Made by a program: the position numbers and the translations under genes. Positions 8,171 to 63,130 of a stretch of DNA of 64,000 nucleotides are shown piece after piece (position 1 is the stretch's first letter; the number at the start of each line of letters is the position of its first letter). The stretch is taken from the NCBI GenBank assembly GCA_041908065.1, contig JAYRGC010000039.1:2481-66480 (forward strand), read 5' to 3'. The notes under the pieces were generated by a model that made no database searches, was not told where the DNA came from, and saw nothing but the letters and a program-made list of their open reading frames with translations. Source of the stretch: Alphaproteobacteria bacterium. GTDB taxonomy: Bacteria; Pseudomonadota; Alphaproteobacteria; UBA9219.

Positions 8171-8247
8171 GCGCCCTTAGCTCAGTTGGATAGAGCGGCT
8201 GCCTTCTAAGCAGCAGGTCAGAGGTTCGAATCCTCTAGGGCGCGCCA
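8171..8247 (+). tRNA. tRNA-Arg (anticodon TCT)
   Basis: Cloverleaf: acceptor GCGCCCT/AGGGCGC, D-arm GCTC..GAGC, anticodon stem GCTGC/GCAGC with loop CTTCTAA, T-arm GAGGTTCGAATCCTC, discriminator plus CCA encoded. Confidence 0.85.
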
Positions 8248-8265
8248 GTTTTCGAAGCCTCGTGT

Positions 8266-8347
8266 TTCCCTGAGCCTGTCGAAGGGAACTTACGCGATCA
8301 AAGCGCGGCAATCTCCCGCAGTCGCTTCGACAGGCTCAGCGACCGCG
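8266..8347. repeat. family-C palindromic repeat (core GAGCCTGTCGAA / TTCGACAGGCTC in inverted orientation)
   Basis: Two copies of the 12-nt core in opposite orientation, each flanked by short IRs. The same core recurs at 19125-19184, 36265-36289, 37797-37808 and 38054-38078. Confidence 0.8.
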
Positions 8348-14573: not shown

Positions 14574-14690
14574 CCGTCATTGCGAGCGGCCTTTTTCAGG
14601 CCGCGAAGCAATCCATGGTCACTGGCATAATGGCACTGGATTGCTTCGCCGCCAAGGGGCGGCTCGCAATGACGGCTTTTGGTCGTCTAT
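14574..14690. repeat. family-A nested palindromic repeat, copy A1
   Basis: gtcattgcgagcggcc...gcgaagcaatcca / tggattgcttcgccgccaaggggcggctcgcaatgac inverted arms. Lies between the nuoN 3' end and birA. Confidence 0.85.
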
Positions 14691-14728
14691 CTCACAACTA
14701 ATGGAAATTATTTGGAATAACCATTAAG

Positions 14729-16314: not shown

Positions 16315-17232
16315 ATGGGGTTTAGCGGACTGTTTGGAAAAATGGCGGATTTTATTGGGTGTTCGCCAGGAATCGTTATGATTGTTTCCGGTATGTTAGG
16401 ATTGGTTTTTTCCTACGGGCATCTATTGCCGGATTTCATGTTGGCCGTCCTTGTTGCTGGAATAATTTTCCTTTCCTGTTTTCGCATAAACGCGCCATTG
16501 CCACGCAACGCTTTATGGCGGATACCCGTTTTCTGCGTTCTGCGCTATGTGGCCTTTCCGCTGCTCATGTGGTGGTTGTGCATGCAGATCGCTCCAGAAT
16601 ACGCCGTTGGGATGCTCCTGCTTGGCCTTTGTCCTGCTGGTTCGTCTTCGGCTGGATTCGCATCGATTTATAACGGCAATGTGTCCACGGCCATTGCCAT
16701 CACTGTATTCAGCAGCATAGCTTGCGTTGCGTTTATGCCAGTGATGTTTGGGGTGTTTGCGGGATTGGAGATTTCTGTATCTCCATGGCAATTGCTGCGT
16801 ACTTTGTCGTTATGCGTTCTTTTGCCAGGAGCGCTTTATCTGATTTTGCGCAGCAATGCCGCCGTAGTTGGATATTTTACAAGGAATGGACAAAATATCA
16901 CTGTGCTTATGCTTGGCGCGATAGTGTTTTTAGCACTAGCAAGAAATCAAGATACGTTGATTCAAAATCACAATGAGCTGCTATTGCCTTTTTCTCTTAT
17001 CGTAGGTTTTTACATGATGGCGATGATTGCAGGTTTCGCCATAAAAACTTCCCTGATGGAACGCATATCGTATGGAATATGCTCAACCTTCAATAATAAT
17101 GCGCTAGGCATTGGCATCGCTGGAATATACTTCGATAGCAAGGTGGTCGTGTTTATGGTGATGACATCAATCGTATGGATGACATTGCCGATTATTGCTC
17201 GACCAGTAATCAAGAATTTGAGCACTTCATAA
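16315..17232 (+). CDS. BASS/SBF-like (bile acid:sodium symporter superfamily) membrane transporter
   Basis: About 9 TM helices. LGLCPAGSSSAGFASIYNGNVSTAIAIT resembles the CPGG...SNV signature of the SBF/Acr3 superfamily. Low GC. Antisense to the flanking nuo genes. The start is uncertain (16249 or 16315). Confidence 0.5.
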   Translation: MGFSGLFGKMADFIGCSPGIVMIVSGMLGLVFSYGHLLPDFMLAVLVAGIIFLSCFRINAPLPRNALWRIPVFCVLRYVAFPLLMWWLCMQIAPEYAVGMLLLGLCPAGSSSAGFASIYNGNVSTAIAITVFSSIACVAFMPVMFGVFAGLEISVSPWQLLRTLSLCVLLPGALYLILRSNAAVVGYFTRNGQNITVLMLGAIVFLALARNQDTLIQNHNELLLPFSLIVGFYMMAMIAGFAIKTSLMERISYGICSTFNNNALGIGIAGIYFDSKVVVFMVMTSIVWMTLPIIARPVIKNLSTS

Positions 17233-18705
17233 AGCTGCTGATATGAGGTGATATTGCGCCAACACTTGCTCGGTCGAGCGCGTGAACAGGTCGCTGAACG
17301 TGGCGGGGTGCAGCCCCATCCATAGAACCAGAACTGCCAACGGCGCGAACATAAGCCATTCGCGAGCGGAAAGATCCGGCATGGCCTTGACGTCGGCGTG
17401 GACGGCCTCGCCGAAGAACACGCGGCGGTAAAGCCACAGCATATAGGCCGCGCCCAACACCACGCCGGTGGCGGCGAGCGCGGCGATTATTTTATCGGCT
17501 TGCCACGCTCCGGCCATCGACAGAAACTCGCCCACAAAGCCGCTGGTGCCGGGCAACCCCACTGCGGCCAACGTGAACACCATGAACACGGCGGCATAGC
17601 GCGGCATTACCGAAGCCACTCCGCCGTAACGGGCGATCTCGCGGGTGTGCAGGCGGTCGTAGACCACGCCGACGGCCAGAAACAGCGCGGCGGAAACGAA
17701 CCCGTGCGACAGCATCACCAGCATCGCCCCGTCCAATCCTTGTTGGTTGCCGGAGAATATGCCAAGCGTGACATACCCCATGTGCGCCACCGAAGAATAG
17801 GCGATCAGCTTCTTCATGTCGGTTTGCGCCAGAGCGACCAGCGAGGCGTAAACGATGGCGATCACGCCCAGCCACAGCATCATCGGCGCGAAGGTTGCGC
17901 TGGCCTCGGGCAGCATTTGCAATGACACGCGGATGAACCCGTACCCGCCCATCTTCAGCAACACGCCCGCCAGTATGACCGATCCGGCGGTGGGAGCCTC
18001 GACGTGGGCGAATGGCAGCCATGTGTGGAACGGCCACATGGGGGTTTTGACGGCGAAGGAGGCGAAGAACGCCAACCACAGCCATACCGCCATTTCCTTG
18101 GGGAACTTGCCGCCCATCATCGCCGCCATGTCGGTCGTGCCGACGTGAAGCGACATGGCTATGATCGCCAGCAGCATCAAAACCGATCCTAGGAAGGTAT
18201 AAAGGAAAAATTTGTACGCCGCGTAAATCCGTCCGTTTCCGCCCCATACGCCGATGATAAGGAACATCGGGATCAAAACGCCCTCGAAGAAGACGTAGAA
18301 CAGCACGAAATCGAGCGCGGTGAACATGCCGATCATCATGGATTCCAGTATCAGCATGGCGGCCATGAAGTCGGGAAGGCGTTTTTTAATCCCGAATCCT
18401 GCCAAAACGCATATCGGGGTCAATAACGCCGACAGCATGACGAACCAGACCGATATTCCGTCCACGCCCTTGTGATAAACGACGTTGAAGGCGGGAATCC
18501 ATTGCGCCGTTTCCTCCAACTGGAAGCCGCTCTGCGAGGGATCGAATTGCCACAGCATTTCCAGCGACAAGGCGAAGACGGCCAAGGTCGTTCCCAGCGC
18601 GATTTGCCGCGCCGCGCCGTCGCGTCCCCGCGCCAACAGCATAATCATCCCCGCGCCGAGCAGGGGCAGGAAGGTGAGGAAACTTAGGATGGGAAAATCG
18701 GGCAT
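17227..18705 (-). CDS. nuoM: NADH-quinone oxidoreductase subunit M
   Basis: 492-aa antiporter-like subunit with conserved NuoM blocks. Confidence 0.9.
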   Translation of the reverse strand: MPDFPILSFLTFLPLLGAGMIMLLARGRDGAARQIALGTTLAVFALSLEMLWQFDPSQSGFQLEETAQWIPAFNVVYHKGVDGISVWFVMLSALLTPICVLAGFGIKKRLPDFMAAMLILESMMIGMFTALDFVLFYVFFEGVLIPMFLIIGVWGGNGRIYAAYKFFLYTFLGSVLMLLAIIAMSLHVGTTDMAAMMGGKFPKEMAVWLWLAFFASFAVKTPMWPFHTWLPFAHVEAPTAGSVILAGVLLKMGGYGFIRVSLQMLPEASATFAPMMLWLGVIAIVYASLVALAQTDMKKLIAYSSVAHMGYVTLGIFSGNQQGLDGAMLVMLSHGFVSAALFLAVGVVYDRLHTREIARYGGVASVMPRYAAVFMVFTLAAVGLPGTSGFVGEFLSMAGAWQADKIIAALAATGVVLGAAYMLWLYRRVFFGEAVHADVKAMPDLSAREWLMFAPLAVLVLWMGLHPATFSDLFTRSTEQVLAQYHLISAAL

Positions 18706-18720
18706 GGATGCTCCAGTAAA

Positions 18721-20673
18721 TTACGCCAGCCAAAACCAAGTCATAAGTCCCACCAAGCCCAGCACCATAACGAAGGCATAGTGATAGAGATATCCGGTTT
18801 GCAGGTATCCGATGTTTTTGCCCGCTCGCGCCACCGCAGAGGCGACGCCGTCAGGCCCCAAGCCGTCGATTATCCGGTCGTCGCCGGTGCGCCACAACGC
18901 GCCGCCCAACGCTTTGGCCGGACGCACGAACAGCGCATCGTACAGCTCGTCGAAGTAGTATTTGCGGAACGACAGGCGGTAGAGGAAACCGCTGGCCTTG
19001 GCGATTTTCGCGGGCATTTTCGGCAACGCCAGATACAGCAGAGCGGCCAAGGCCATGCCTGCTAAGGCGACGACGAGCGGAAGGTGTTTCAGCCATACTG
19101 CGTGATGTTCGCCGGATGATGCAGTCGCTTCGACAGGCTCAGCGACCGTTGTGGCGAGAGCGACCGCTGAGCTTGTCGAAGCGACCGCCCCGCGCCAGAA
19201 CTCGGCAGCGCCTTCGGAAGCGAACCAGCCGTGCGCATACCATCCGGCAAATATCGCCCCAATGGCCAGAGGAACTAGCGGTAGCAGCATGATGACCGGA
19301 GATTCGTGCGCGTGCTCCATGGCGTGGGCGTCGGCGCGCGGCTTGCCGTGGAAGGCGAGGAACAGCAGGCGCAGCGAATAGAACGCGGTTAAAAACGCCG
19401 CCGCGATGCCTAGGGCGTAGGCGAACATCCCGAACGGCGCGTTGGAGGCCAACGCGGATTCCAAAATCATATCCTTGGAATAGAATCCGGCGAACCCGAA
19501 AACTCCGTCAAGCCCGATCCCCGCCAACGCCAGCGATCCTATCCACATTAATCCGCAGGTTATGGGAGCCTTGCGCCACAGCCCGCCCATGCGGCGCAAG
19601 TCCTGCTCGCCCGACAGGGCGTGGATGACCGATCCCGCGCCAAGGAACAGCAACGCCTTGAAGAAGGCGTGGGTGGCGAGGTGGAAAATGGCGGCGGAAT
19701 AGGCCGACACGCCAAGCGCGAAGAACATGTAGCCGAGTTGGCTCATGGTCGAATAGGCGATCACTCGCTTGATGTCGAACTGCGTCAGGCCGATGGTGGC
19801 GGCCACTATCGCCGTCAATCCGCCCACCACGGTGATGACGGCCAAGGCCACGGGCGCGTGCTCGAACACCGGCGACATGCGGGCGACCATGAACACGCCA
19901 GCCGTCACCATGGTCGCGGCGTGGATGAGCGCGGACACGGGGGTAGGGCCTTCCATGGCGTCGGGCAACCAAGTGTGCAGCCCCAATTGCGCCGATTTGC
20001 CCATCGCGCCCACGAACAGCAGCAGGCAGGCGAAATTGAGCGCGTAGGGAGCAGCGACGTTAGGGACTGCGGCGAACATGTCGGCGAATTTCACCGATCC
20101 GAACAGCGCGAAGCAGGCGAAGATGCCGAGCAGAAAGCCGAGATCGCCTATGCGGTTGACGACGAACGCCTTGATGGAGGCGGCGCAGGCGCTAGGTTTT
20201 TCAAACCAGAAGCCGATGAGGAGGTAGGAACACAGCCCCACGCCCTCCCAGCCGAAGAACATCTGCAACAAGTCGTCCGCCGACACCAGCATCAACATGA
20301 AGAAGGTGAAGAGGCTTAGATACGACATAAAGCGCGGTATGCTTTTGTCGTGGCTCATATAGCCGACGGCGTACACATGCACCATCGCCGATACCACGTT
20401 GACGACAAGCAACATCACGGCGGTTAGGGCATCGATGCGTATCGTCCAGTTGGCTTTGAAGCCACCCGAGGAAAACCACTCGGTCAGAACATGGGTTCTG
20501 GAGTTGCCCTCCAAGGCCACGTCTTGGAATATGGCGATCGACAGCCCCGCCGCCGCCAGCATCAGGACGCAGGTGACGACTTGCGCCGCCTTATCGCCCA
20601 GCGTCTTGCCGCCCAGTCCGGCGAATGCCGCGCCCAGCAGGGGAAGGAATATAGCCAGAAGGTCGGTGGTCAT
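18721..20673 (-). CDS. nuoL: NADH-quinone oxidoreductase subunit L
   Basis: 650 aa with an antiporter-like core plus the C-terminal long helix region. It contains an in-frame repeat insertion; see the repeat feature at 19125-19184. Confidence 0.9.
   Translation of the reverse strand: MTTDLLAIFLPLLGAAFAGLGGKTLGDKAAQVVTCVLMLAAAGLSIAIFQDVALEGNSRTHVLTEWFSSGGFKANWTIRIDALTAVMLLVVNVVSAMVHVYAVGYMSHDKSIPRFMSYLSLFTFFMLMLVSADDLLQMFFGWEGVGLCSYLLIGFWFEKPSACAASIKAFVVNRIGDLGFLLGIFACFALFGSVKFADMFAAVPNVAAPYALNFACLLLFVGAMGKSAQLGLHTWLPDAMEGPTPVSALIHAATMVTAGVFMVARMSPVFEHAPVALAVITVVGGLTAIVAATIGLTQFDIKRVIAYSTMSQLGYMFFALGVSAYSAAIFHLATHAFFKALLFLGAGSVIHALSGEQDLRRMGGLWRKAPITCGLMWIGSLALAGIGLDGVFGFAGFYSKDMILESALASNAPFGMFAYALGIAAAFLTAFYSLRLLFLAFHGKPRADAHAMEHAHESPVIMLLPLVPLAIGAIFAGWYAHGWFASEGAAEFWRGAVASTSSAVALATTVAEPVEATASSGEHHAVWLKHLPLVVALAGMALAALLYLALPKMPAKIAKASGFLYRLSFRKYYFDELYDALFVRPAKALGGALWRTGDDRIIDGLGPDGVASAVARAGKNIGYLQTGYLYHYAFVMVLGLVGLMTWFWLA
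19125..19184. repeat. family-C palindromic element inserted in-frame within nuoL
   Basis: It shares 28 identical nt (gcagtcgcttcgacaggctcagcgaccg) with the intergenic copy at 8318-8347. A 20-nt IR with a 20-nt spacer is translated as AVASTSSAVALATTVAEPVEATA in a loop region of NuoL. Confidence 0.7.
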
Positions 20674-20679
20674 GGCGTG

Positions 20680-20994
20680 TTATCCCCTCATCTCGCTGAT
20701 GTCGTCCACCGCTATCGAACCCTTGCTGCGGAAATAGGCGACCAGTATCGCAAGGCCGATGGCGGCCTCCGCCGCCGCGACGGCCAACACCAAAAGCGCG
20801 AACACCTGTCCGGCCAGATTGTGCAGATAGGCCGAAAACGCCACGAAGTTCACGTTTACGGCCAGCAGCATGATCTCGATCGACATCAACAGGACGATGA
20901 CGTTCTTGCGGTTGATGAATATTCCCGCCACGCCGATGGCGAACAGAGCGGCGGCCAGAACCAGAAAGTGGGTGAGGGTTATGGCCATGGTCAT
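20680..20994 (-). CDS. nuoK: NADH-quinone oxidoreductase subunit K
   Basis: 104 aa with 3 TM helices; the [16 protein letters not shown] motif is typical NuoK. Confidence 0.9.
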
Positions 20995-21686
20995 ATTTCT
21001 ACCCCTTCGCCGATTTTGGGACGGCGGATTTCCATCACGTCCGCGGTTTTGATTGCCAACTGCGCCCCCACGTCCTGACGCTTGGCGTCCTTGCGTTGAC
21101 GCAAGGCCAATACTATCGCGCCCACCATGGCCACCAGCATTATAAGCCCGCAGAGCTGAAAGGGCAGGGCGTATTGAGTGTAAAGGACGTGGCCGATGGC
21201 GGTCGCATTGTCGGCGGCGTTTTCAGGAGAGCCGAACACTGCGGCTGCGGGCGAAGTCTTCCACGCCCACGTCGCGGCGATAAGCTGGGCGAGCATGACG
21301 ATCCCGACCAATCCGCCCAAGGGAAGGTATTCCATGAAGCCTTTTCGCATTTCGCGGGCGGTTATGTTCAGCATCATGACGACGAACAGGAACAAGACAG
21401 CCACCGCTCCGACGTAGACGATGATGAGCGTGAAGGCCAGAAATTCCGCGCCCATCAGCAGGAACAGCGCGGCGGCGTTGAAAAAGCACAGGATAAGGAA
21501 AAGCACCGAATGCACCGGATTGCGCGATGTCACCACCATCAACGCCGAGGCTATAAGCACGGCGGAGAAGGCGTAGAACACGCCTGCGCTCAACAGAGAG
21601 GGAAGATTTTGGAGGATAAAACTCAAAGCCGTTCTCCCTTTCAGGAAGAGGAAATCCCAGAATCCCATGTGGACTGCGAAGCGCAA
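20991..21686 (-). CDS. nuoJ: NADH-quinone oxidoreductase subunit J
   Basis: [44 protein letters not shown] is a NuoJ signature. The start is uncertain (21686 or 21668). Confidence 0.8.
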
Positions 21687-29680: not shown

Positions 29681-29744
29681 AAGCCCTTACGCGAAACTGG
29701 AGGATAATTTGACTATCAAAAACATAAGCAACCACCGTCATTGC

Positions 29745-29870
29745 GAGCCGCCCCATGGCGGCGAAGCAATCCAGAGTCGCGGAGCAACGGCATTGGATTG
29801 CTTCGCCGCCAAGGGGCGGCTCGCAATGACAACCCTTGGCTGTAACTTAGCAATGACAGCTTTTGTTACA
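29745..29870. repeat. family-A nested palindromic repeat, copy A2
   Basis: cgtcattgcgagccgcccc...gcgaagcaatccagagtc // cattggattgcttcgccgccaaggggcggctcgcaatgac. Lies between ispH and hpnH. Confidence 0.85.
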
Positions 29871-36223: not shown

Positions 36224-36256
36224 CGGTCGCGGTCGCTGACGGTAGCGGCGCGTTGG

Positions 36257-36370
36257 TTGAGTAAGTTCCCTTCGACAGGCTCAGGGAACACAGAGTTTTG
36301 GATTCATGAACAAGTGGCGCGGCGGGGATTCCTCTCCCTCTGGGAGAGGGGGGATTGCGGAACCTTGGTC
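36257..36370. repeat. composite repeat (family C followed by family D/B-end modules)
   Basis: gttcccttcgacaggctcagggaac, then gagttttggattcatgaacaagtggcgcggcgg...cctctccctctgggagaggggggattgcggaaccttggtcgcgtg. A near-identical block is at 37797-38052. Confidence 0.8.
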
Positions 36371-36499
36371 GCGTGCATAACGCATAGCCGCTTGCCATTT
36401 TTTCCGTCCGAGATTAAGAATAGTTCAACTGCGCCGGATGGTCGGCGCGTTTGCGAATCGCCGCCTTGGAATCCATCGCGCCAAAAGGGGTTTTCTGCC

Positions 36500-37796: not shown

Positions 37797-38078
37797 GGCT
37801 CAGGGAACGCGAGTTTTGGATTTACGAACAGAAGGTGCGGCGGCGACTCCTCTCCCTCTGGGAGAGGATAGCGCGGCTTGGATTTTCGCTCCTTAGCGAA
37901 AATCCTTAGCCGCAGCTTGGTGAGGGTTCCCAAGTTGGGTTTACGAAAGAAACCCTCACCAAGGTATTGCCACGAATTTTCGAAGGCGAAAATTCGGGCA
38001 AACCTATCCTCTCCCAGAGGGAGAGGGGGGATCGCTGCGCCTTGGTCGCGTGAGTTCCCTTCGACAGGCTCAGGGAAC
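37797..38078. repeat. composite repeat block (families C-partial, D, B, C)
   Basis: Contains the 125-nt family-B element (ggtgagggttcccaagttgggtttacgaaagaaaccctcaccaaggtattgccacgaattttcgaaggcgaaaattcgggcaaacctatcctctcccagagggagagggggg), which is about 95% identical to 39966-40085. Confidence 0.85.
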
Positions 38079-38198
38079 ACGGGGTTTCGGGGAATGCTGG
38101 CAGGGCGTCGAGATTAGCGCGCGCGGTGAAAATCTCTGAAACAAAAAAAGGCGGGGGACTTTCATCCCCCGCCGTATCAATAGAACATGGGGATAGGA

Positions 38199-38852
38199 TT
38201 ACCTCATGTTATAAGTGAAAGAGATTGAATTAGTGGAAGTTCCATTGCAAGCGGCAACTATGGCCGGAATCGACGGTATTGCAGGGGGGGTTATTGTGAG
38301 CGCACCAGCGTTTATATGTACCCTTGTCAGTCCTACATTGCCTGACAATCCTGAAACTTTTTGCACAAGATCAGGACATGCGTTTTGCGGTACACCATAG
38401 AAAACCACACTGAAATTAGACGCGCTGCCTGTGCCTGCGGCATCTGCACCCGGAGGAGCTGCATCAGCAGCAGCACTAGCGGCCTGTCCTTGAACTATTC
38501 TTGTGCCGAAAGCAGGAGTTGCCCCGCCAATTCCAGCCCAAGGATTGATGATGGATACGACGTTAGCCCCATTCTTGCCCAACATATCCGCTGGCACGGC
38601 ATTAGTCTGGCCGAGTGCAACCGACCATGGTACGGCTGCGCCAAAGTCGGAAGATGTCGCATATAAAGCCCTGACACCTTGAACTACTGACAGCAATTGC
38701 TCGCTGGCACGAGATATGCGCAGATTGGTGTAAACCGACGCCGCCGCCACCCAGACTCCGCCGAGGATCAATCCCACGATTCCGAGCACTATGGCTGCTT
38801 CGGTCAAGGTGAAGCCGCGCATCGCGCGGGCTTTTTGCCGTTCTACGATCAT
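38199..38852 (-). CDS. type IV pilin-like protein (class III signal peptide; unusually large)
   Basis: Leader MIVERQKARAMRG followed by FTLTEAAIVLGIVGLILGGVWVAAA (prepilin peptidase site G|FTL(T)E plus hydrophobic helix). There is a C-terminal Cys...Cys pair (D-region-like). No pilus-assembly genes are nearby. Confidence 0.6.
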   Translation of the reverse strand: MIVERQKARAMRGFTLTEAAIVLGIVGLILGGVWVAAASVYTNLRISRASEQLLSVVQGVRALYATSSDFGAAVPWSVALGQTNAVPADMLGKNGANVVSIINPWAGIGGATPAFGTRIVQGQAASAAADAAPPGADAAGTGSASNFSVVFYGVPQNACPDLVQKVSGLSGNVGLTRVHINAGALTITPPAIPSIPAIVAACNGTSTNSISFTYNMR

Positions 38853-39093
38853 AGTAATTCTCCGTTCGCTGTTTGCAGTTGCGACATACGGCCACGATAA
38901 GGATACAGGCACCATGCCTGAACGGCCACACGCCAAAGACCATAGCACCATCATTACGGCTGCGACATCCTGAAAACGTCGCGGCCACCGGAATTTTCTA
39001 AGCACGCTAGCGGGAGAATGTTATAAAAACGTTAATGCAAAAACAAGGAGGTTCTTTTTCAAAACGGTTAGGTACGACCAAAGGGAAGGGGAT

Positions 39094-39235
39094 CGTCATT
39101 GCGAGCCGCCCCTTGGCGGTGAAGCAATCCAGAGTCGTTGTGCATGTGGCACGGGTTTGCTCCGCCGCCACGGGGCGGCTCGCAATGACAGCCTTTGGCT
39201 GTAGACTCAATATGACGGCTTTTGGCTGTGACTTT
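39094..39235. repeat. family-A nested palindromic repeat, copy A3
   Basis: Same arms as A1/A2 plus the ACAGCC-TTT-GGCTGT sub-modules. Confidence 0.85.
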
Positions 39236-39258: not shown

Positions 39259-39906
39259 ATGAAAGCCGCCGACATCGACGAGTTCTTTGCCCGCCTTGCC
39301 GCCGCGAGGCCGGAGCCGAAGATAGAGCTTGATTACGTCAATCCCTATACCCTGTTGGTGGCGGTGGTGCTGTCGGCCCAATCCACAGACGTCGGGGTGA
39401 ACAAGGCGACTGCTTCGCTGTTCCGCGAGGTTTCTTCTCCGGCGCAAATGGTGGCTTTGGGCGAGGAGAGGTTTAAGGAGCGCATAAAAACTATAGGACT
39501 GTTCAACGCCAAGGCGGCCAACATAATCGCCTTGTCCAAAATTTTAACTGAGAAGTTCGGCGGCGAGGTTCCTCGTTCCCGCGAGGAATTGCAGTCCTTG
39601 CCCGGGGTGGGACGCAAAAGCGCGAACGTCATTCTGAACACCGCGTTCAGGGAGCCGGTAATAGGGGTGGATACCCATATATTCCGCGTCGCCAACCGCA
39701 CCGGATTGGCGTTCGGCAAGACGCCGGAGGCAATCGAAAAGGAATTGATGAAGAAAATCCCCCCGCGTTGGCTGCTGAACGCGCATCATTGGCTGGTTTT
39801 GCATGGGCGATACACTTGCAAGGCCAAGAAACCGGATTGCGCCAATTGTCCGGTCAGCGCGTTATGCGAAAATAGGCAGGATTTGCGGACAGATAGCGGT
39901 CGCTGA
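39259..39906 (+). CDS. nth: endonuclease III
   Basis: HhH-GPD fold, catalytic Lys region and C-terminal [4Fe-4S] cluster loop CKAKKPDCANCPVSALC. Confidence 0.9.
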   Translation: MKAADIDEFFARLAAARPEPKIELDYVNPYTLLVAVVLSAQSTDVGVNKATASLFREVSSPAQMVALGEERFKERIKTIGLFNAKAANIIALSKILTEKFGGEVPRSREELQSLPGVGRKSANVILNTAFREPVIGVDTHIFRVANRTGLAFGKTPEAIEKELMKKIPPRWLLNAHHWLVLHGRYTCKAKKPDCANCPVSALCENRQDLRTDSGR

Positions 39907-39965
39907 GCTGCCACCGTGAGCCTGTCGAACGGCTGTCGAAGCGACTGCGATGGGATGGCCGCCGC

Positions 39966-40085
39966 TTGGTGAGGGTTATCAAGTTGGGTTTGAGAAAAGA
40001 ACCCTCACCAAGGTATTGCCACGAATTTTCGAAGGCGAAAATTCGGGCAAACCTATCCTCTCCCAGAGGGAGAGGGGGGATTGCT
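39966..40085. repeat. family-B three-hairpin repeat, second copy
   Basis: Near-identical to 37917-38040. Lies between nth and the T4CP-like gene. Confidence 0.85.
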
Positions 40086-40094
40086 GAACGTTGG

Positions 40095-42506
40095 TTACTT
40101 GCGATCCGACAAGCCTTTGTTCATTTTGTCGGCCATGGTTTCCAGCAATTTCATAACGCCGCCCGACAATCCGGTCTTCAGAACCGCGCCGCCGTAGTCC
40201 TTGTCTTCATCGCCGGATCTTTCAAGTTTGGATTCCAGAGCGGCTTCCATAAGGTCTTTGTCTTCGCTGAACGGCTTTGATTGCGCCGCAGTCACGCCGT
40301 TGCCGTTAGGATGGGCGTGGCCGTTTCCGTATTCGGCGCGGCTGATTTCGTCGATGGCGAACTCGTCGCCCGATTGCAGCAACGGAACGCCTTCGGGTTG
40401 CGATGCGGAAATCTGGGTCGGAAAACCGGATTCCGAGGCGGCTCGGGCAACCGAAGGCAAGGGCGGTTTGGCGGGAGAAGCCGCCGCCGCTTTGGCCGGT
40501 TGCGGCGCGGTCGTGGCGATATGAGCCAGAACCGAGGCCGTTTTATCCACGCCGCCGGATTTCGCCTCGGCCAGAGCGTCGGCAATCATGGAAATCTCCG
40601 CCGCCGTCGTGGCCGCCGGAGGAGACGCAGTGGCGGCCTTCCAATCCTTGTCCGACAGGCGGGTGGCCAATTCGGCCAAGGCGCGTTCTCTTGCCGTCGA
40701 GACGGTCGTTGTGGCCGGAACCGGCAGCATGTGGTGAACCCGCAAGGCCTTCACCTTGTCGGCCACGGCGTGGAACAGGCGGGCGCGGGAGATATACTCG
40801 GCGAACAGCATATGCACTTCGCCTTCGCGCTGGGTGCGAAGGTGGTCGTAGTCGGCGCGCACGCGCGATTGCGCCGCGCCCGCTCCGCGATCGTCGTAGA
40901 ACGGCGCGGTCATAAACAGGCTGGAGATGGTGTTGGTGGGGGAGGTCATGCCGCGATTTTCCATCACCCACGACGTGCCGACGTGTTCTTGGAAGAATTT
41001 TTTGGTTTCCGTCGGATCCTCGATTTTTCCAAATATCTTGAGGTTGCAGTTGCCGAGGATTGATTGCGCCTCTTGCTTGACGCGCTTTTCCATCGACGGC
41101 AAATCTTGCGCCGCGAATATCAGCGAGAAACCGAGCGAACGCGCTTGCGCCGCCATCACGGCCATGCCTTGGGCTGTGTAGTAGCCGACTTCGTCGAACA
41201 CCGTCATAAACGACGAGCTGGAGCGCGTTTGCTTGCTGCCGATTGCGCTTTCCCAGCTGCCCTCGACCGTGTTGCCCAGCGTCGCGCCCATCATGCCCTT
41301 GAGGCTAGCGGCGACGATTTTGCCTAAGTTGGCGGCTTCGTCGCCGGATTTTTCCAAGGCCGGAATCAGGCCGACCAGAATGCGGCGGTTCAGCACCACG
41401 TCCAAGACGTCGACGTCGGCCAGCTGCGCCTTGAAGATATAGCCGTATTCGTCGCCCAAAGACTGCAGCGAGCGGGTGAATTGCATCGACAGGTAGCCGT
41501 GTTGTTGCCGCGCCACCGACAAGTCGTACATCGGTTGTTCCGGCGAGGGGGGCTTTTCGTTGCCTTCGTCGTCGAAGGCCGCGTCGACGAAGCCCGGCAG
41601 GGTATTCAGGTATCCCCGCAGGGCGCGCAAAACGCGCTCGGGCAGGGTTTGGTCGCGGGAGAGGCGGATTATGGGCTTCAGCTCGATATATTCGCGCAAC
41701 ACGCCCACGTCCAACAATAATCCCTGCTTGTCGCGCTTGAACGTCAGCGCGGGCATCAACGCGCCCATCAGCGCGACGGCGCGTTCCTTCCACATGGCGT
41801 TGTCGCCGCCAGCGTCCGGCATCAGGCTGGTAACCATGTTCGTCAGATAAGATGCCGAGCCGTTGGCGAACGGGTTCATGGTGTTGGAGACGGCCCCGCT
41901 GTCGGAGTTGGCTGTCATGTAGTTGAGCACTAGCAGATCGTCATCGCGACCGAAACGACGGGCGATGGCGTACAGCGAAGCCCAAAGATCGGTGTCGGCC
42001 TTGCCATCGACGTAGACGAAGCCGGATCCCCATGCGAGGGAATTGACCACCAACGATTTCAGACCTTCGGTCTTTCCCGATCCAGTCGTGCCCAGAAACA
42101 GGATATGCGTGCGAGCGTCGCTATTGGTTAGCCACAATTCCCGCCCGTGATCGGGGTTCTCGGCGTCGTCGACTACGCCCAGATATAATATACCCTCCGA
42201 TTTTCCCGCGCCGGATTTTCCGGGCGGGGCGTTGTGTTTGTCCGGCAGTCCGGCGTTTTTGGGGAATTTGAACGGCATGACGAAGGGGCGTTTGCTCATC
42301 CATCTCGCGTAAAACAGCACGCAGAATAAGGCAATATCAGACCAAGCGTAGACTTCGGGCAAGACAATCAATGTGACGGACACGGCGGCCAACGCCGCCG
42401 CGAACATTTTTGTCTGTCCCCAGTAATCGGCGATACGCACCGACGCCGGCCGGACGTCGCGCATAAGATTGCGCCGAGCTATTGCGTGTTTGGGGAGAAT
42501 CGTCAT
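40095..42506 (-). CDS. type IV secretion coupling protein (T4CP; TraD/VirD4/DotL-like) homolog, orphan
   Basis: Two N-terminal TM helices, Walker A HILFLGTTGSGKTEGL, a downstream VYVDGKADTDLW block, Walker B SSFMTVFDEVGYY, and a long low-complexity Ala/Pro-rich acidic C-terminal tail. Confidence 0.55.
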   Translation of the reverse strand: MTILPKHAIARRNLMRDVRPASVRIADYWGQTKMFAAALAAVSVTLIVLPEVYAWSDIALFCVLFYARWMSKRPFVMPFKFPKNAGLPDKHNAPPGKSGAGKSEGILYLGVVDDAENPDHGRELWLTNSDARTHILFLGTTGSGKTEGLKSLVVNSLAWGSGFVYVDGKADTDLWASLYAIARRFGRDDDLLVLNYMTANSDSGAVSNTMNPFANGSASYLTNMVTSLMPDAGGDNAMWKERAVALMGALMPALTFKRDKQGLLLDVGVLREYIELKPIIRLSRDQTLPERVLRALRGYLNTLPGFVDAAFDDEGNEKPPSPEQPMYDLSVARQQHGYLSMQFTRSLQSLGDEYGYIFKAQLADVDVLDVVLNRRILVGLIPALEKSGDEAANLGKIVAASLKGMMGATLGNTVEGSWESAIGSKQTRSSSSFMTVFDEVGYYTAQGMAVMAAQARSLGFSLIFAAQDLPSMEKRVKQEAQSILGNCNLKIFGKIEDPTETKKFFQEHVGTSWVMENRGMTSPTNTISSLFMTAPFYDDRGAGAAQSRVRADYDHLRTQREGEVHMLFAEYISRARLFHAVADKVKALRVHHMLPVPATTTVSTARERALAELATRLSDKDWKAATASPPAATTAAEISMIADALAEAKSGGVDKTASVLAHIATTAPQPAKAAAASPAKPPLPSVARAASESGFPTQISASQPEGVPLLQSGDEFAIDEISRAEYGNGHAHPNGNGVTAAQSKPFSEDKDLMEAALESKLERSGDEDKDYGGAVLKTGLSGGVMKLLETMADKMNKGLSDRK

Positions 42507-43304: not shown

Positions 43305-43470
43305 TTATGGCCAAAGGCCGTCATTGCGAGCCGCCACTCTTTGGTTTGGACAGCGTTGAACGCTGTCGGGCGGCGAAGCAATCCAGTGCCGTTGCTCCAT
43401 AAGGTCTGGATTGCTTCGCCGCCAAGGGGCGGCTCGCAATGACGGCTTTTGGCTGTAGACCTTGCAATGG
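43305..43470. repeat. family-A nested palindromic repeat, copy A4 (with extra inner palindrome GGACAGCGTTGAACGCTGTC)
   Basis: Arms as A1-A3 plus an inserted hairpin that is also present in A8. Confidence 0.85.
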
Positions 43471-45679: not shown

Positions 45680-45878
45680 GTCGTCATTGCGAGCGGCCCC
45701 TTGGCGGCGAAGCAATCCAGATTCATAGCGCAACGGCACTGGATTGCTTCGCCGCCAAGGGGCGGCTCGCAATGACGCCCTTCCTCAGCCCTCCCCAAAA
45801 AACCAAAATGTAAATCGGTGGATTTTAACGGGGTAGAGACAGCCTTTGGCTGTGACTTCGTAATGACGCTAAACTTGG
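45680..45878. repeat. family-A nested palindromic repeat, copy A5 (core plus detached ACAGCC-TTT-GGCTGT module)
   Basis: Core at 45680-45780, and a module agcctttggctgtgacttcgtaatgacgctaaac at 45841-45875. The outer TIR-like cttcttgcataa is at 45667. Confidence 0.8.
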
Positions 45879-46966: not shown

Positions 46967-47057
46967 TCAAACCGCGAGGATTCCTATTCCTTTTGGCATT
47001 TGGTCGCCGCGATTGCAAGCGGTATCCATGGGAAAAATGCCGACATTATGGCGATCT

Positions 47058-47166
47058 GTCGTCATTGCGAGCGGCCTTCTTCTGGCCGCGAAGCAATCCA
47101 GTGCAGTTGCTCCATGGCTCTGGATTGCTTCGCGTCGCAAGGGCGACGCTCGCAATGACGCTAAAC
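47058..47166. repeat. family-A nested palindromic repeat, copy A6
   Basis: gtcattgcgagcggcc...gcgaagcaatcca // tggattgcttcgcgtcgcaagggcgacgctcgcaatgac. Confidence 0.85.
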
Positions 47167-52519: not shown

Positions 52520-52730
52520 CCTGTTACAGCCAAAGGCCGGTCATTGAGAGGTCTACGGCCAAAGGCCGTCATGCGAGGTCTACGGCCAAAGGCCGTCATT
52601 GCGAGCGTCGCCCTTGCGACGCGAAGCAATCCAGAGTCATAGAACAACGGCACTGGATTGCTTTGCGGCCTGAAGAAGGCCGCTCGCAATGACGGCCTTT
52701 GGCCGTAACAGGGTAGATGCCGGCCTTTGA
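52520..52730. repeat. family-A nested palindromic repeat, copy A7, with tandem GGCCAAAGGCCGTCAT sub-repeats
   Basis: Three tandem ggccaaaggccg(g)tcat(t/g) units precede the A core (gtcattgcgagcgtcgcccttgcgacgcgaagcaatccag...ctggattgctttgcggcc...ggccgctcgcaatgac). Confidence 0.85.
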
Positions 52731-62904: not shown

Positions 62905-63130
62905 GCCGTCATTTGCGAAGTAGACAGCCAAAGGCCGTATGCGAGCCGCCTCTTGGGTTTGGGCGTCATTGCGAGCCGCCACCCTTTGGTTTGGACAGCT
63001 TTGAACGCTGTCGGGCGGCGAAGCAATCCAGAGCCGTTGCTCTATGACTCTAGATTGCTTCGCCGCCAAGGGGCGGCTCGCAATGACAGCCTTTGGCTGT
63101 GACTTCGCGTGACAGCAGTTATGCAAGAAG
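62905..63130. repeat. family-A nested palindromic repeat, copy A8, with outer TIRs TTCTTGCATAA / TTATGCAAGAA
   Basis: Full-length element: outer TIR, gtcattgcgagccgcc arms (duplicated left arm), inner GGACAGCTTTGAACGCTGTC hairpin, and an ACAGCC-TTT-GGCTGT module. Confidence 0.85.

Follow-up and report, generated by a model that had tools for sequence, protein, structure and literature searches.

A REPIN-like hairpin dimer, probably incorporated in frame into nuoL of an uncultured alphaproteobacterium, and its kin in other phyla

The DNA considered here is a 64-kb stretch of an alphaproteobacterial contig (JAYRGC010000039.1), hereafter called the window. Its nuoL gene, which codes for a membrane subunit of respiratory complex I, carries a palindromic insert in its reading frame. 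The neighbours of nuoL are nuoM (17227-18705), nuoK (20680-20994) and nuoJ (20991-21686), as given by the list of open reading frames (ORFs) and by Pfam. NuoL is identified by the Pfam domains Proton_antipo_N/M and NADH5_C, and its top match in the Protein Data Bank is chain L of complex I from Paracoccus denitrificans (8qby_L, E = 7e-192). All residues which are invariant across 23 aligned NuoL orthologues are retained. The top sequence matches are metagenome-assembled genomes (MAGs) of uncultured Alphaproteobacteria; the best match with a species-level name is Arenibaculum at 63%. The G+C content of the window is 0.58. The gene and the parts of the insert are as follows.

18721-20673, minus strand: nuoL, 650 aa, ORF intact, within the nuoJ-K-L-M cluster.
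19121-19188, minus strand: whole palindromic insert, two hairpin modules in inverted orientation (a dimer) with the spacer between them; NuoL residues 496-518, AVASTSSAVALATTVAEPVEATA, are encoded here.
19121-19148, plus strand: module B, GCA GTCGC TTCGACAGGCTCA GCGAC CG, an exact match to the core, identical to 8318-8345 at 28 of 28 positions.
19149-19159, no strand: spacer between the modules, i.e., the loop of the long hairpin; the coding strand reads TCTCGCCACAA.
19160-19188, plus strand: module A, inverted and slightly diverged, GCGACCGC TGAGCTTGTCGAA GCGAC CGCC, with a core match on the minus strand (one mismatch).

The initial annotation had reported a 60-bp element with 20-nt arms and a 20-nt spacer. 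The inverted repeat is present: tcgcttcgacaggctcagcg (19125-19144) and cgctgagcttgtcgaagcga (19165-19184) are complementary at 19 of 20 positions. The true palindrome, however, extends from 19121 to 19188 and is a dimer. It comprises 68 nt, and the matching coding segment has 69 nt, i.e., 23 codons without a single stop. The repeat unit consists of a stem arm, a 13-nt loop TGAGCCTGTCGAA, and a second stem arm; the stem has 5-6 bp, and its sequence differs between units. On the coding strand module B reads CGGTCGC TGAGCCTGTCGAA GCGAC TGC and encodes (T)VAEPVEATA; module A encodes AVASTSSAVA. The two modules are three transitions apart, and two of these keep G-U pairing in RNA. The spacer comes after a third CGGTCGC heptamer, which results in in-frame unit spacings of 21 and 18 nt. 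Beyond the hairpins themselves the nuoL copy has no terminal inverted repeats, and the tetranucleotide CGTC is absent from both strands of the insert.

The coding strand of the palindrome (19188 to 19121) folds into a stem of 15+12 bp (27 bp) which contains two G-U pairs and a single mismatch and is closed by a 12-nt loop. The free energy of this fold is -54.6 kcal/mol for RNA (z -6.1; none of 200 shuffles was equally stable) and -31.8 kcal/mol for DNA (z -5.4). The 650-aa ORF runs through the element undisturbed, as the initial annotation had said, and would be translated in frame. Of the three frames, two can be read through the element without a stop: the one in use, which lacks Arg and Lys, and another (RSLRQAQRSLSPQRSLSLSKRL), which has seven of these residues.

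Is this segment an addition to nuoL or an ancient part of it? We have compared 120 NuoL homologues of 60-100% identity and, separately, an alignment of 23. The distance between the conserved anchors HES and KYYFD is 103 residues in 88 of the 104 homologues which possess both; here it is 115. Neither EPVE nor STSS occurs at the insert site in any of 119 homologues, and the element peptides are absent from the 23-sequence alignment as well. Within this set the segment occurs in no other NuoL, and orthologues with the same segment and similar DNA, by which the initial annotation would have recognized ancestral coding sequence, were not found in this set. The element has 23 codons and the net gain amounts to 12 residues; therefore about 11 ancestral residues, from a conserved IFVLPxxDSIA stretch, were replaced or lost.

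The nearest relative, P0002, has 74% identity, and no closer one is present among 5.8 billion proteins. It is a true sister because a 9-residue deletion elsewhere is shared with the NuoL of the window. This deletion (AAP---------YALN; NuoL residues ~205-215, window ~20030-20060) sets the two apart from the other 21 aligned orthologues. The P0002 gene resides on a 4913-bp contig (L001, Logan SRR19603261) outside any nuo operon, between genes for a Mur ligase and a response regulator. The possibility that the segment is ancestral nuoL coding sequence, from which the intergenic copies described below were derived or which they resemble by chance, draws on the fact that the P0002 loop is also 12 residues above the norm. 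Yet neither in protein nor in DNA is this loop related to the element, and its indel structure (+13/-1) is a different one. Its DNA scores 15 against the element (shuffles 14.2 +/- 2.2), and its self-complementarity is 14 compared with 66 in the nuoL segment. An ancestral insert common to both was rejected accordingly, as the DNA of P0002 has neither similarity to the element nor a palindrome. Further, the motif occurs far above chance, and an identical 23-mer is found in at least 120 genome stretches of other phyla, unconnected with nuoL. An ancestral origin is hence barely credible.

The position of the segment in the protein is equally informative. In an AlphaFold2 model of NuoL (mean predicted local distance difference test score, pLDDT, 73) residues 500-523 have a pLDDT below 50 and form a coil between helices 466-485 and 527-549. 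We take these helices to be the transmembrane helices TM14 and TM15 of the known NuoL fold of E. coli and T. thermophilus. In this fold TM15 is followed by the long lateral helix HL on the cytoplasmic face; therefore the TM14-TM15 loop should be periplasmic, and in the model the loop carrying the insert probably is. The loop is net acidic and the segment past TM15 is rich in Lys and Arg, in line with the positive-inside rule. From the charges of the translated frames we infer that only the observed one would be compatible with a periplasmic loop, since the other open frame would bring in seven Arg/Lys. The Paracoccus protein 8qby_L has 55 unaligned extra residues at the same point, which indicates that the site tolerates changes in length. 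A location in a variable surface loop, as proposed initially, agrees with the low-confidence coil of the model and with these additional residues.

Outside nuoL, the window holds further copies of the repeat. We searched its 64 kb for the core TTCGACAGGCTCAG with up to 2 mismatches and compared the outcome with 100 shuffles. Nine matches were found against 0.33 expected, a number attained by none of the shuffles. Three of them (23621, 24318, 29587) were taken as chance matches: each has 2 mismatches, and two are without complementary flanks. Altogether there are nine full or partial modules at six sites, seven of them with an intact loop, and five of the six sites are intergenic. The copies outside nuoL are these.

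8264-8289, plus strand: first half of an inverted dimer, an intergenic hairpin 17 nt downstream of tRNA-Arg(TCT) (8171-8247); it belongs to the GTTCCC/GGGAAC subfamily.
8318-8345, plus strand: intergenic hairpin of the GTCGC/GCGAC subfamily, second half of the 8264-8345 dimer; all of its 28 nt agree with nuoL module B.
36265-36289, plus strand: intergenic hairpin GTTCCC TTCGACAGGCTCA GGGAAC downstream of gpsA, within a mosaic of other palindromic modules; core at 36271-36283.
37797-37808, plus strand: 5'-truncated copy GGCTCAGGGAAC, 10 nt past the stop codon of pdxH (pdxH by Pfam).
38054-38078, plus strand: intergenic hairpin GTTCCC TTCGACAGGCTCA GGGAAC between convergent pdxH and PilS-like genes; core at 38060-38072.
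39897-39948, plus strand: GTCGC-type hairpin, CGGTCGC TGAGC ... CTGTCGAA GCGAC TGC, whose loop encloses another hairpin module of 24 nt (39909-39932).

The copies in the window carry the flank CGGTCGC. By their stems they fall into two types, GTCGC/GCGAC (8321, both nuoL arms, 39898) and GTTCCC/GGGAAC (8264, 36265, 38054 and the truncated copy at 37797). The core at 8271-8283 has the opposite orientation and pairs as a dimer with 8318-8345; the hairpin to which it belongs is part of a 52-nt unit which is also present at 38026-38077. When the nested 24 nt (39909-39932) are deleted from the hairpin at 39897-39948 the exact 23-mer is recovered. The identity between nuoL and the copy downstream of tRNA-Arg is real; it covers 8318-8345 and not, as first annotated, 8318-8347. 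The cores assigned to 36265 and 38054 exist too, and these figures mark the starts of longer aligned stretches. Overlooked at that time were the core at 8271-8283, the nested copy in 39897-39948 and the truncated one at 37797-37808.

The hairpin is by no means restricted to this organism. We fetched 2 Mb of sequence around matches, from viral contigs (L002-L121) and genome contigs (L122-L241). The 15-mer core is present in at least 120 viral-contig stretches and the exact 23-mer GTCGCTGAGCCTGTCGAAGCGAC in at least 120 genome stretches. Among the 23-mer matches listed are many Bacteroidales MAGs, Microbacteriaceae isolates (one of them a complete genome), Planctomonas deserti, Sphingomonas mollis, MAGs of Phycisphaerae and Anaerolineae, and a Methanomethylophilaceae MAG; the same 23-nt hairpin is thus shared, among the matches listed, by Bacteroidota, Actinomycetota, Planctomycetota and Pseudomonadota. 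The 2 Mb contain 324 hairpins whose stems measure 4 bp or more. Their loop is nearly invariant and varies mainly at positions 6, 7 and 9, whereas 56 different 5-bp stems are in use. The 5' flank CGGTC(N)C is conserved at 0.82-0.97 per position (140 bystander hairpins), and CGGTC is better kept than its 3' complement. Neighbouring hairpins across the loci are inverted in 100 pairs and direct in 37, and the nuoL spacing of 38-39 nt is within the commonest range.

Three observations on individual loci may be added. Many copies are situated at contig ends, from which one can conclude that the repeat breaks assemblies. In the uncultured bacterium CAZNLA01 a hairpin pair lies inside a unit of ~110 bp which resembles a MITE (miniature inverted-repeat transposable element) and has the ends acaggactttcgctt. 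In six viral contigs resembling prophages or gene transfer agents (L003, L007, L038, L045, L061, L087) the hairpin is located in the head-morphogenesis cluster (portal, S78 prohead protease) with the same ORF adjoining, an arrangement suggestive of a conserved site downstream of a gene with high expression.

In other bacteria the hairpin occurs in frame within genes, too. At loci with a G+C content below 0.56, 17 of 71 copies have 60 or more open codons to either side, compared with 65% of random positions. Of the Bacteroidales copies sampled, roughly a quarter fall within long open frames. Thus, the hairpin is depleted in genes but far from excluded. Pfam domains are present in all ten ORFs tested and mostly flank the copy at either end; the ten are alpha-2-macroglobulin, GH106 (in two species), Fmt, MetH, GH2, a DUF4922/SpoIID protein, a MiaB-like protein, AtpG and a Mur ligase. 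Fmt and AtpG harbour four or five consecutive modules. The gut Bacteroidales loci comprise atpG (L222, L242-L245), fmt (L127), metH (L205) and the Mur ligase gene (L131/L155). AtpG relatives of 72-100% identity range from 306 to 395 residues in length through the presence or absence of whole modules. The MetH module is found in 120 of 120 close homologues and decays there by point mutation (VAEPVEAA, VAEPAEAT, VAELAEAT). As all homologues are filled, metH was dropped as an empty-site case; it illustrates persistence and decay, no recent insertion.

Taken together, we consider it highly probable that the nuoL segment stems from a small hairpin repeat with dispersed copies, which entered the reading frame as a REPIN-like dimer and is tolerated in a loop. 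Two inverted units with a short spacer would have been incorporated into the region of nuoL which codes for the TM14-TM15 loop, replacing about 11 ancestral codons with a net gain of 12. The copy would persist because the frame is kept and the frame used is free of stop codons; its product would be an uncharged or acidic peptide rich in Ala, Ser, Thr and Val in a disordered, length-tolerant and probably periplasmic loop. As a side effect, the nuo mRNA would acquire a 27-bp hairpin. The repeat would have moved into the gene and not out of it, and the position in the loop presumably accounts for its tolerance.

Several points weigh against this view. The sequence comes from one contig of a MAG (P0001: one member, one contig) and is thus of metagenomic origin. 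No target-site duplication is visible around 19121-19188, and to judge from the codon balance the event in nuoL appears as a replacement of about 11 codons; of the in-frame insertion described initially, the frame and the repeat origin stand, the clean insertion does not. The HES-KYYFD interval of P0002 is 115 residues, i.e., also 12 longer than the norm, and the loop may have been expanded earlier in the lineage shared with P0002 and overwritten later. In public data the closest nuoL is the one at 74% identity, and there is no empty-site allele by which to date the event or fix its boundaries. Translation of this NuoL and its function in complex I are presumed from the integrity of the ORF. 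Intragenic and intergenic counts for the source organism cover the 64-kb window. Finally, no gene recurs as a neighbour: when 1,871 ORFs within 1.5 kb of hairpins were clustered, no family was present at more than 6 of 240 loci. A crude regular expression for the HUH...Y (Y1) motif likewise found nothing in the window or in 241 loci. The top neighbour families are phage head and tail genes or ordinary enzymes.

The metagenomic origin raises the question of an artefact of assembly or amplification, i.e., a fold-back chimera or a mis-join induced by the repeat, as it breaks assemblies elsewhere and many matches are at contig ends. A fold-back product, however, would not have arms which differ at three positions. 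On either side of the insert nuoL continues in one and the same frame, the length of the insert is divisible by three and no stop is included, and comparable in-frame copies exist in hundreds of independent assemblies (metH, atpG). We regard an artefact as very improbable. Adapter or other technical contamination was rejected as well, because in-frame copies occur in conserved genes over hundreds of independent samples.

A more serious question is how the segment was acquired. It might have been copied into nuoL by recombination, be it gene conversion, templated double-strand-break repair or template switching with an ectopic copy, the arms being homogenised by quasi-palindrome correction. The replacement, rather than interruption, of about 11 codons and the absence of a target-site duplication agree with this, and so does the 28-nt stretch of 100% identity with 8318-8345, which ends abruptly on both sides. 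In atpG relatives a 72-nt difference is bounded by direct repeats of GTCGAAGCGACT, as expected from recombination between modules. Slippage is indicated by tandem 18- and 21-nt arrays in L131 and L153; L131 shows an 18-nt tandem expansion (VASTGS x5) relative to L155. On the other hand, recombination leaves the spread to so many unrelated sites and phyla unexplained. Further, nested 24-nt hairpins look like discrete insertions: the one at 39909-39932 and a perfect 24-nt hairpin inside the loop of another module in the atpG of L242 are both without flanking homology. Recombination between copies and slippage clearly contribute to the gain and loss of modules; that recombination also brought the segment into nuoL is a possibility to which we give rather less credence than to the incorporation of a mobile dimer.

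If the dimer was incorporated as a mobile unit, its mover could have been a trans-acting enzyme of the HUH type, similar to the REP-associated tyrosine transposases (RAYTs; REP, repetitive extragenic palindrome), which acts on single-stranded hairpins. We prefer such an enzyme because two nested copies lie inside the loops of other copies; the conserved loop with its free stems points weakly in the same direction. The proposal is a tentative one, with chances clearly short of even.

Alternatively, the palindrome may have been co-opted, as an mRNA hairpin with a regulatory role in the nuo operon (by serving as an RNase III site, by a translational pause which aids membrane insertion, or by differential transcript stability) or as a peptide with a role in the periplasmic loop. 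The fold is very stable, two of the three arm differences preserve G-U pairing in RNA, REPs elsewhere were proposed as RNA elements (PMC3733652), and the intergenic copies are placed directly after genes (tRNA-Arg, gpsA, pdxH, nth). Yet the element is absent from all relatives, so no conservation argues for a function; the metH copies decay over 120 homologues by point mutation as neutral sequence would; and the family is present in many unrelated proteins. No Rfam family matches: at gathering thresholds Rfam returned two tRNAs and nothing else, and around the intergenic copies only noise at E up to 5. Co-option thus appears improbable, and the nuoL insert is most readily understood as a passenger, selfish or neutral, which is tolerated, and not as an adaptation. 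Two other identities were considered for the hairpin and rejected, a hammerhead-like ribozyme, since the core does not fit and Rfam gave no match, and a CRISPR repeat, since copies are single or double and form no arrays.

How does the element relate to known repeats? It shares with the Rickettsia palindromic elements (RPEs) a palindromic family structure, in-frame copies in conserved genes with ORFs that stay open, an extra peptide in tolerant surface regions, and an alphaproteobacterial host. In-frame palindromic repeats are the hallmark of the RPEs. RPEs are ~100-150 bp long and confined to Rickettsia (PMC10969869), and RPE-4 and RPE-6 are CGTC-tagged REPs (PMC3733652). In contrast, the nuoL element has 68 nt in two hairpins of 23-28 nt, lacks CGTC, resides in a genome of 58% G+C, and its hairpin is common to other phyla. 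It is RPE-like in behaviour but, by the size, tag and host given in RPE descriptions, not a member of the RPE families.

Closer parallels exist. Di Nocera et al. (2013) reported intragenic GTAG and CGTC REPs, singles and dimers, in several species; more than half are dimers or groups which encode 20-30 aa, and among their examples are subunits of NADH dehydrogenase and the NuoL homologue MrpD (PMC3733652). In-frame fusions by small non-autonomous elements are known, too (PMC10969869). Hence the initial statement that in-frame palindromes are rare outside Rickettsia does not hold, in view of these REPs and of the many Bacteroidales genes with the hairpin in frame. The nuoL case is a further example of a known phenomenon, in-frame palindromic repeats. 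Like GTAG and CGTC REPs, the hairpin is a short stem-loop which is mostly intergenic and downstream of genes, forms chiefly inverted dimers, sometimes provides stop codons, and in a minority of cases is located wholly inside ORFs. It differs by the CGGTC flank in place of a GTAG or CGTC tag and by a long, conserved 13-nt loop with variable stems; the loop sequence is not contained in the text or supplements of PMC3733652.

With REPINs the family shares two inverted REPs with a short spacer which fold into one long hairpin, the coexistence of singlets and dimers, and dispersed copies. Short imperfect palindromes of 20-40 nt in many scattered places, as REPs are defined, are also what the window shows. 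The inverted dimer that defines REPINs is evident in the nuoL fold, in the 8264-8345 dimer and in the ratio of inverted to direct pairs; a GTAG or CGTC tag is not. Further, REPINs are described as extragenic, and a crude motif scan of the window and of 2 Mb of related loci found no RAYT. REP families specific to individual RAYTs (PMC6006769) are unlike one hairpin spread over phyla. The intergenic copies, though not the one in nuoL, resemble BIMEs and RIMEs in being joined with other palindromic modules in variable order. MITEs (ERIC, Correia, cyanobacterial) measure 70-300 bp; the nuoL copy differs from these by its 68 nt and far shorter modules and by the lack of a target-site duplication and of terminal inverted repeats other than its hairpins.

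The hairpin is set apart by its conserved 13-nt loop, the CGGTC flank, the occurrence in several phyla, and frequent in-frame clusters in essential Bacteroidales genes. Searches of the open-access literature with its sequence and encoded peptides returned unrelated primer matches or nothing, keyword searches only the paper of Di Nocera et al. (2013) and reviews, and an earlier description elsewhere is possible. We put forward as a speculation, which may well prove wrong, that it is an undescribed element common to several phyla, characterized by the TGAGCCTGTCGAA loop, free covarying stems and a CGGTC tag, with modules of ~24 nt (8 codons) which enter essential genes and their own loops and then expand or contract by recombination. 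If so, one would expect a dedicated, widely transferred machinery with single-stranded DNA or RNA as its substrate and the loop as its recognition site, and the element would be a general provider of low-complexity linkers for bacterial proteins. An undescribed family would offer a tractable system, with abundant gut metagenome data, for the movement of small hairpins and for new linker peptides, and would draw attention to a recurring reason why assemblies break and spurious small ORFs arise. The nuoL insert itself would be, as read from the ORF, an example outside Rickettsia of a repeat translated within a core respiratory-chain subunit. It displays the features under which such an insert can survive: the loop is tolerant, the frame is open, and positive charge is absent from the probably periplasmic side.

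Some observations concern the remainder of the window. The hairpin at 39897-39948 provides the last codons (DSGR) and the stop of nth (ORF 39259-39906; HhH-GPD/HHH domains; endonuclease III), the TGA being the first loop triplet (39904-39906). In the mosaics at 36245-36404, 37811-38090 and 39897-40130 intergenic copies, not that of nuoL, are combined with CCTCTCCC..GGGAGAGG and other shared modules in variable order. The mosaic elements (36293-36404, 37811-37889, 37909-38058, 39958-40130) consist of CCTCTCCC-TCTG-GGGAGAGG hairpins, include a 150-nt unit repeated at 89% identity, and contain the TGAGCCTGTCGAA hairpin in some instances and not in others. The module downstream of the truncated copy at 37797-37808 aligns with 36293-36349. 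This repeat-rich region is adjoined by a PilS-like pilin gene (38199-39005) and a type IV secretion coupling protein (40095-42506; TraG/TrwB-like, 803 aa), which may hint at a host-associated or conjugative context.

A second, larger palindromic family is present in the window (CGTCATTGCGAGC ... GAAGCAATCCAG ... CTGGATTGCTTC ... GCTCGCAATGACG).

14579-14697, 29736-29854, 39094-39232, 43316-43467, 45682-45800, 47046-47160, 52532-52709 and 62961-63111: copies of the second family.

There are at least 8 copies of 95-115 nt, which start with CGTC, and to judge from these sequences the family fits the CGTC type and looks like the CGTC-tagged REP superfamily.

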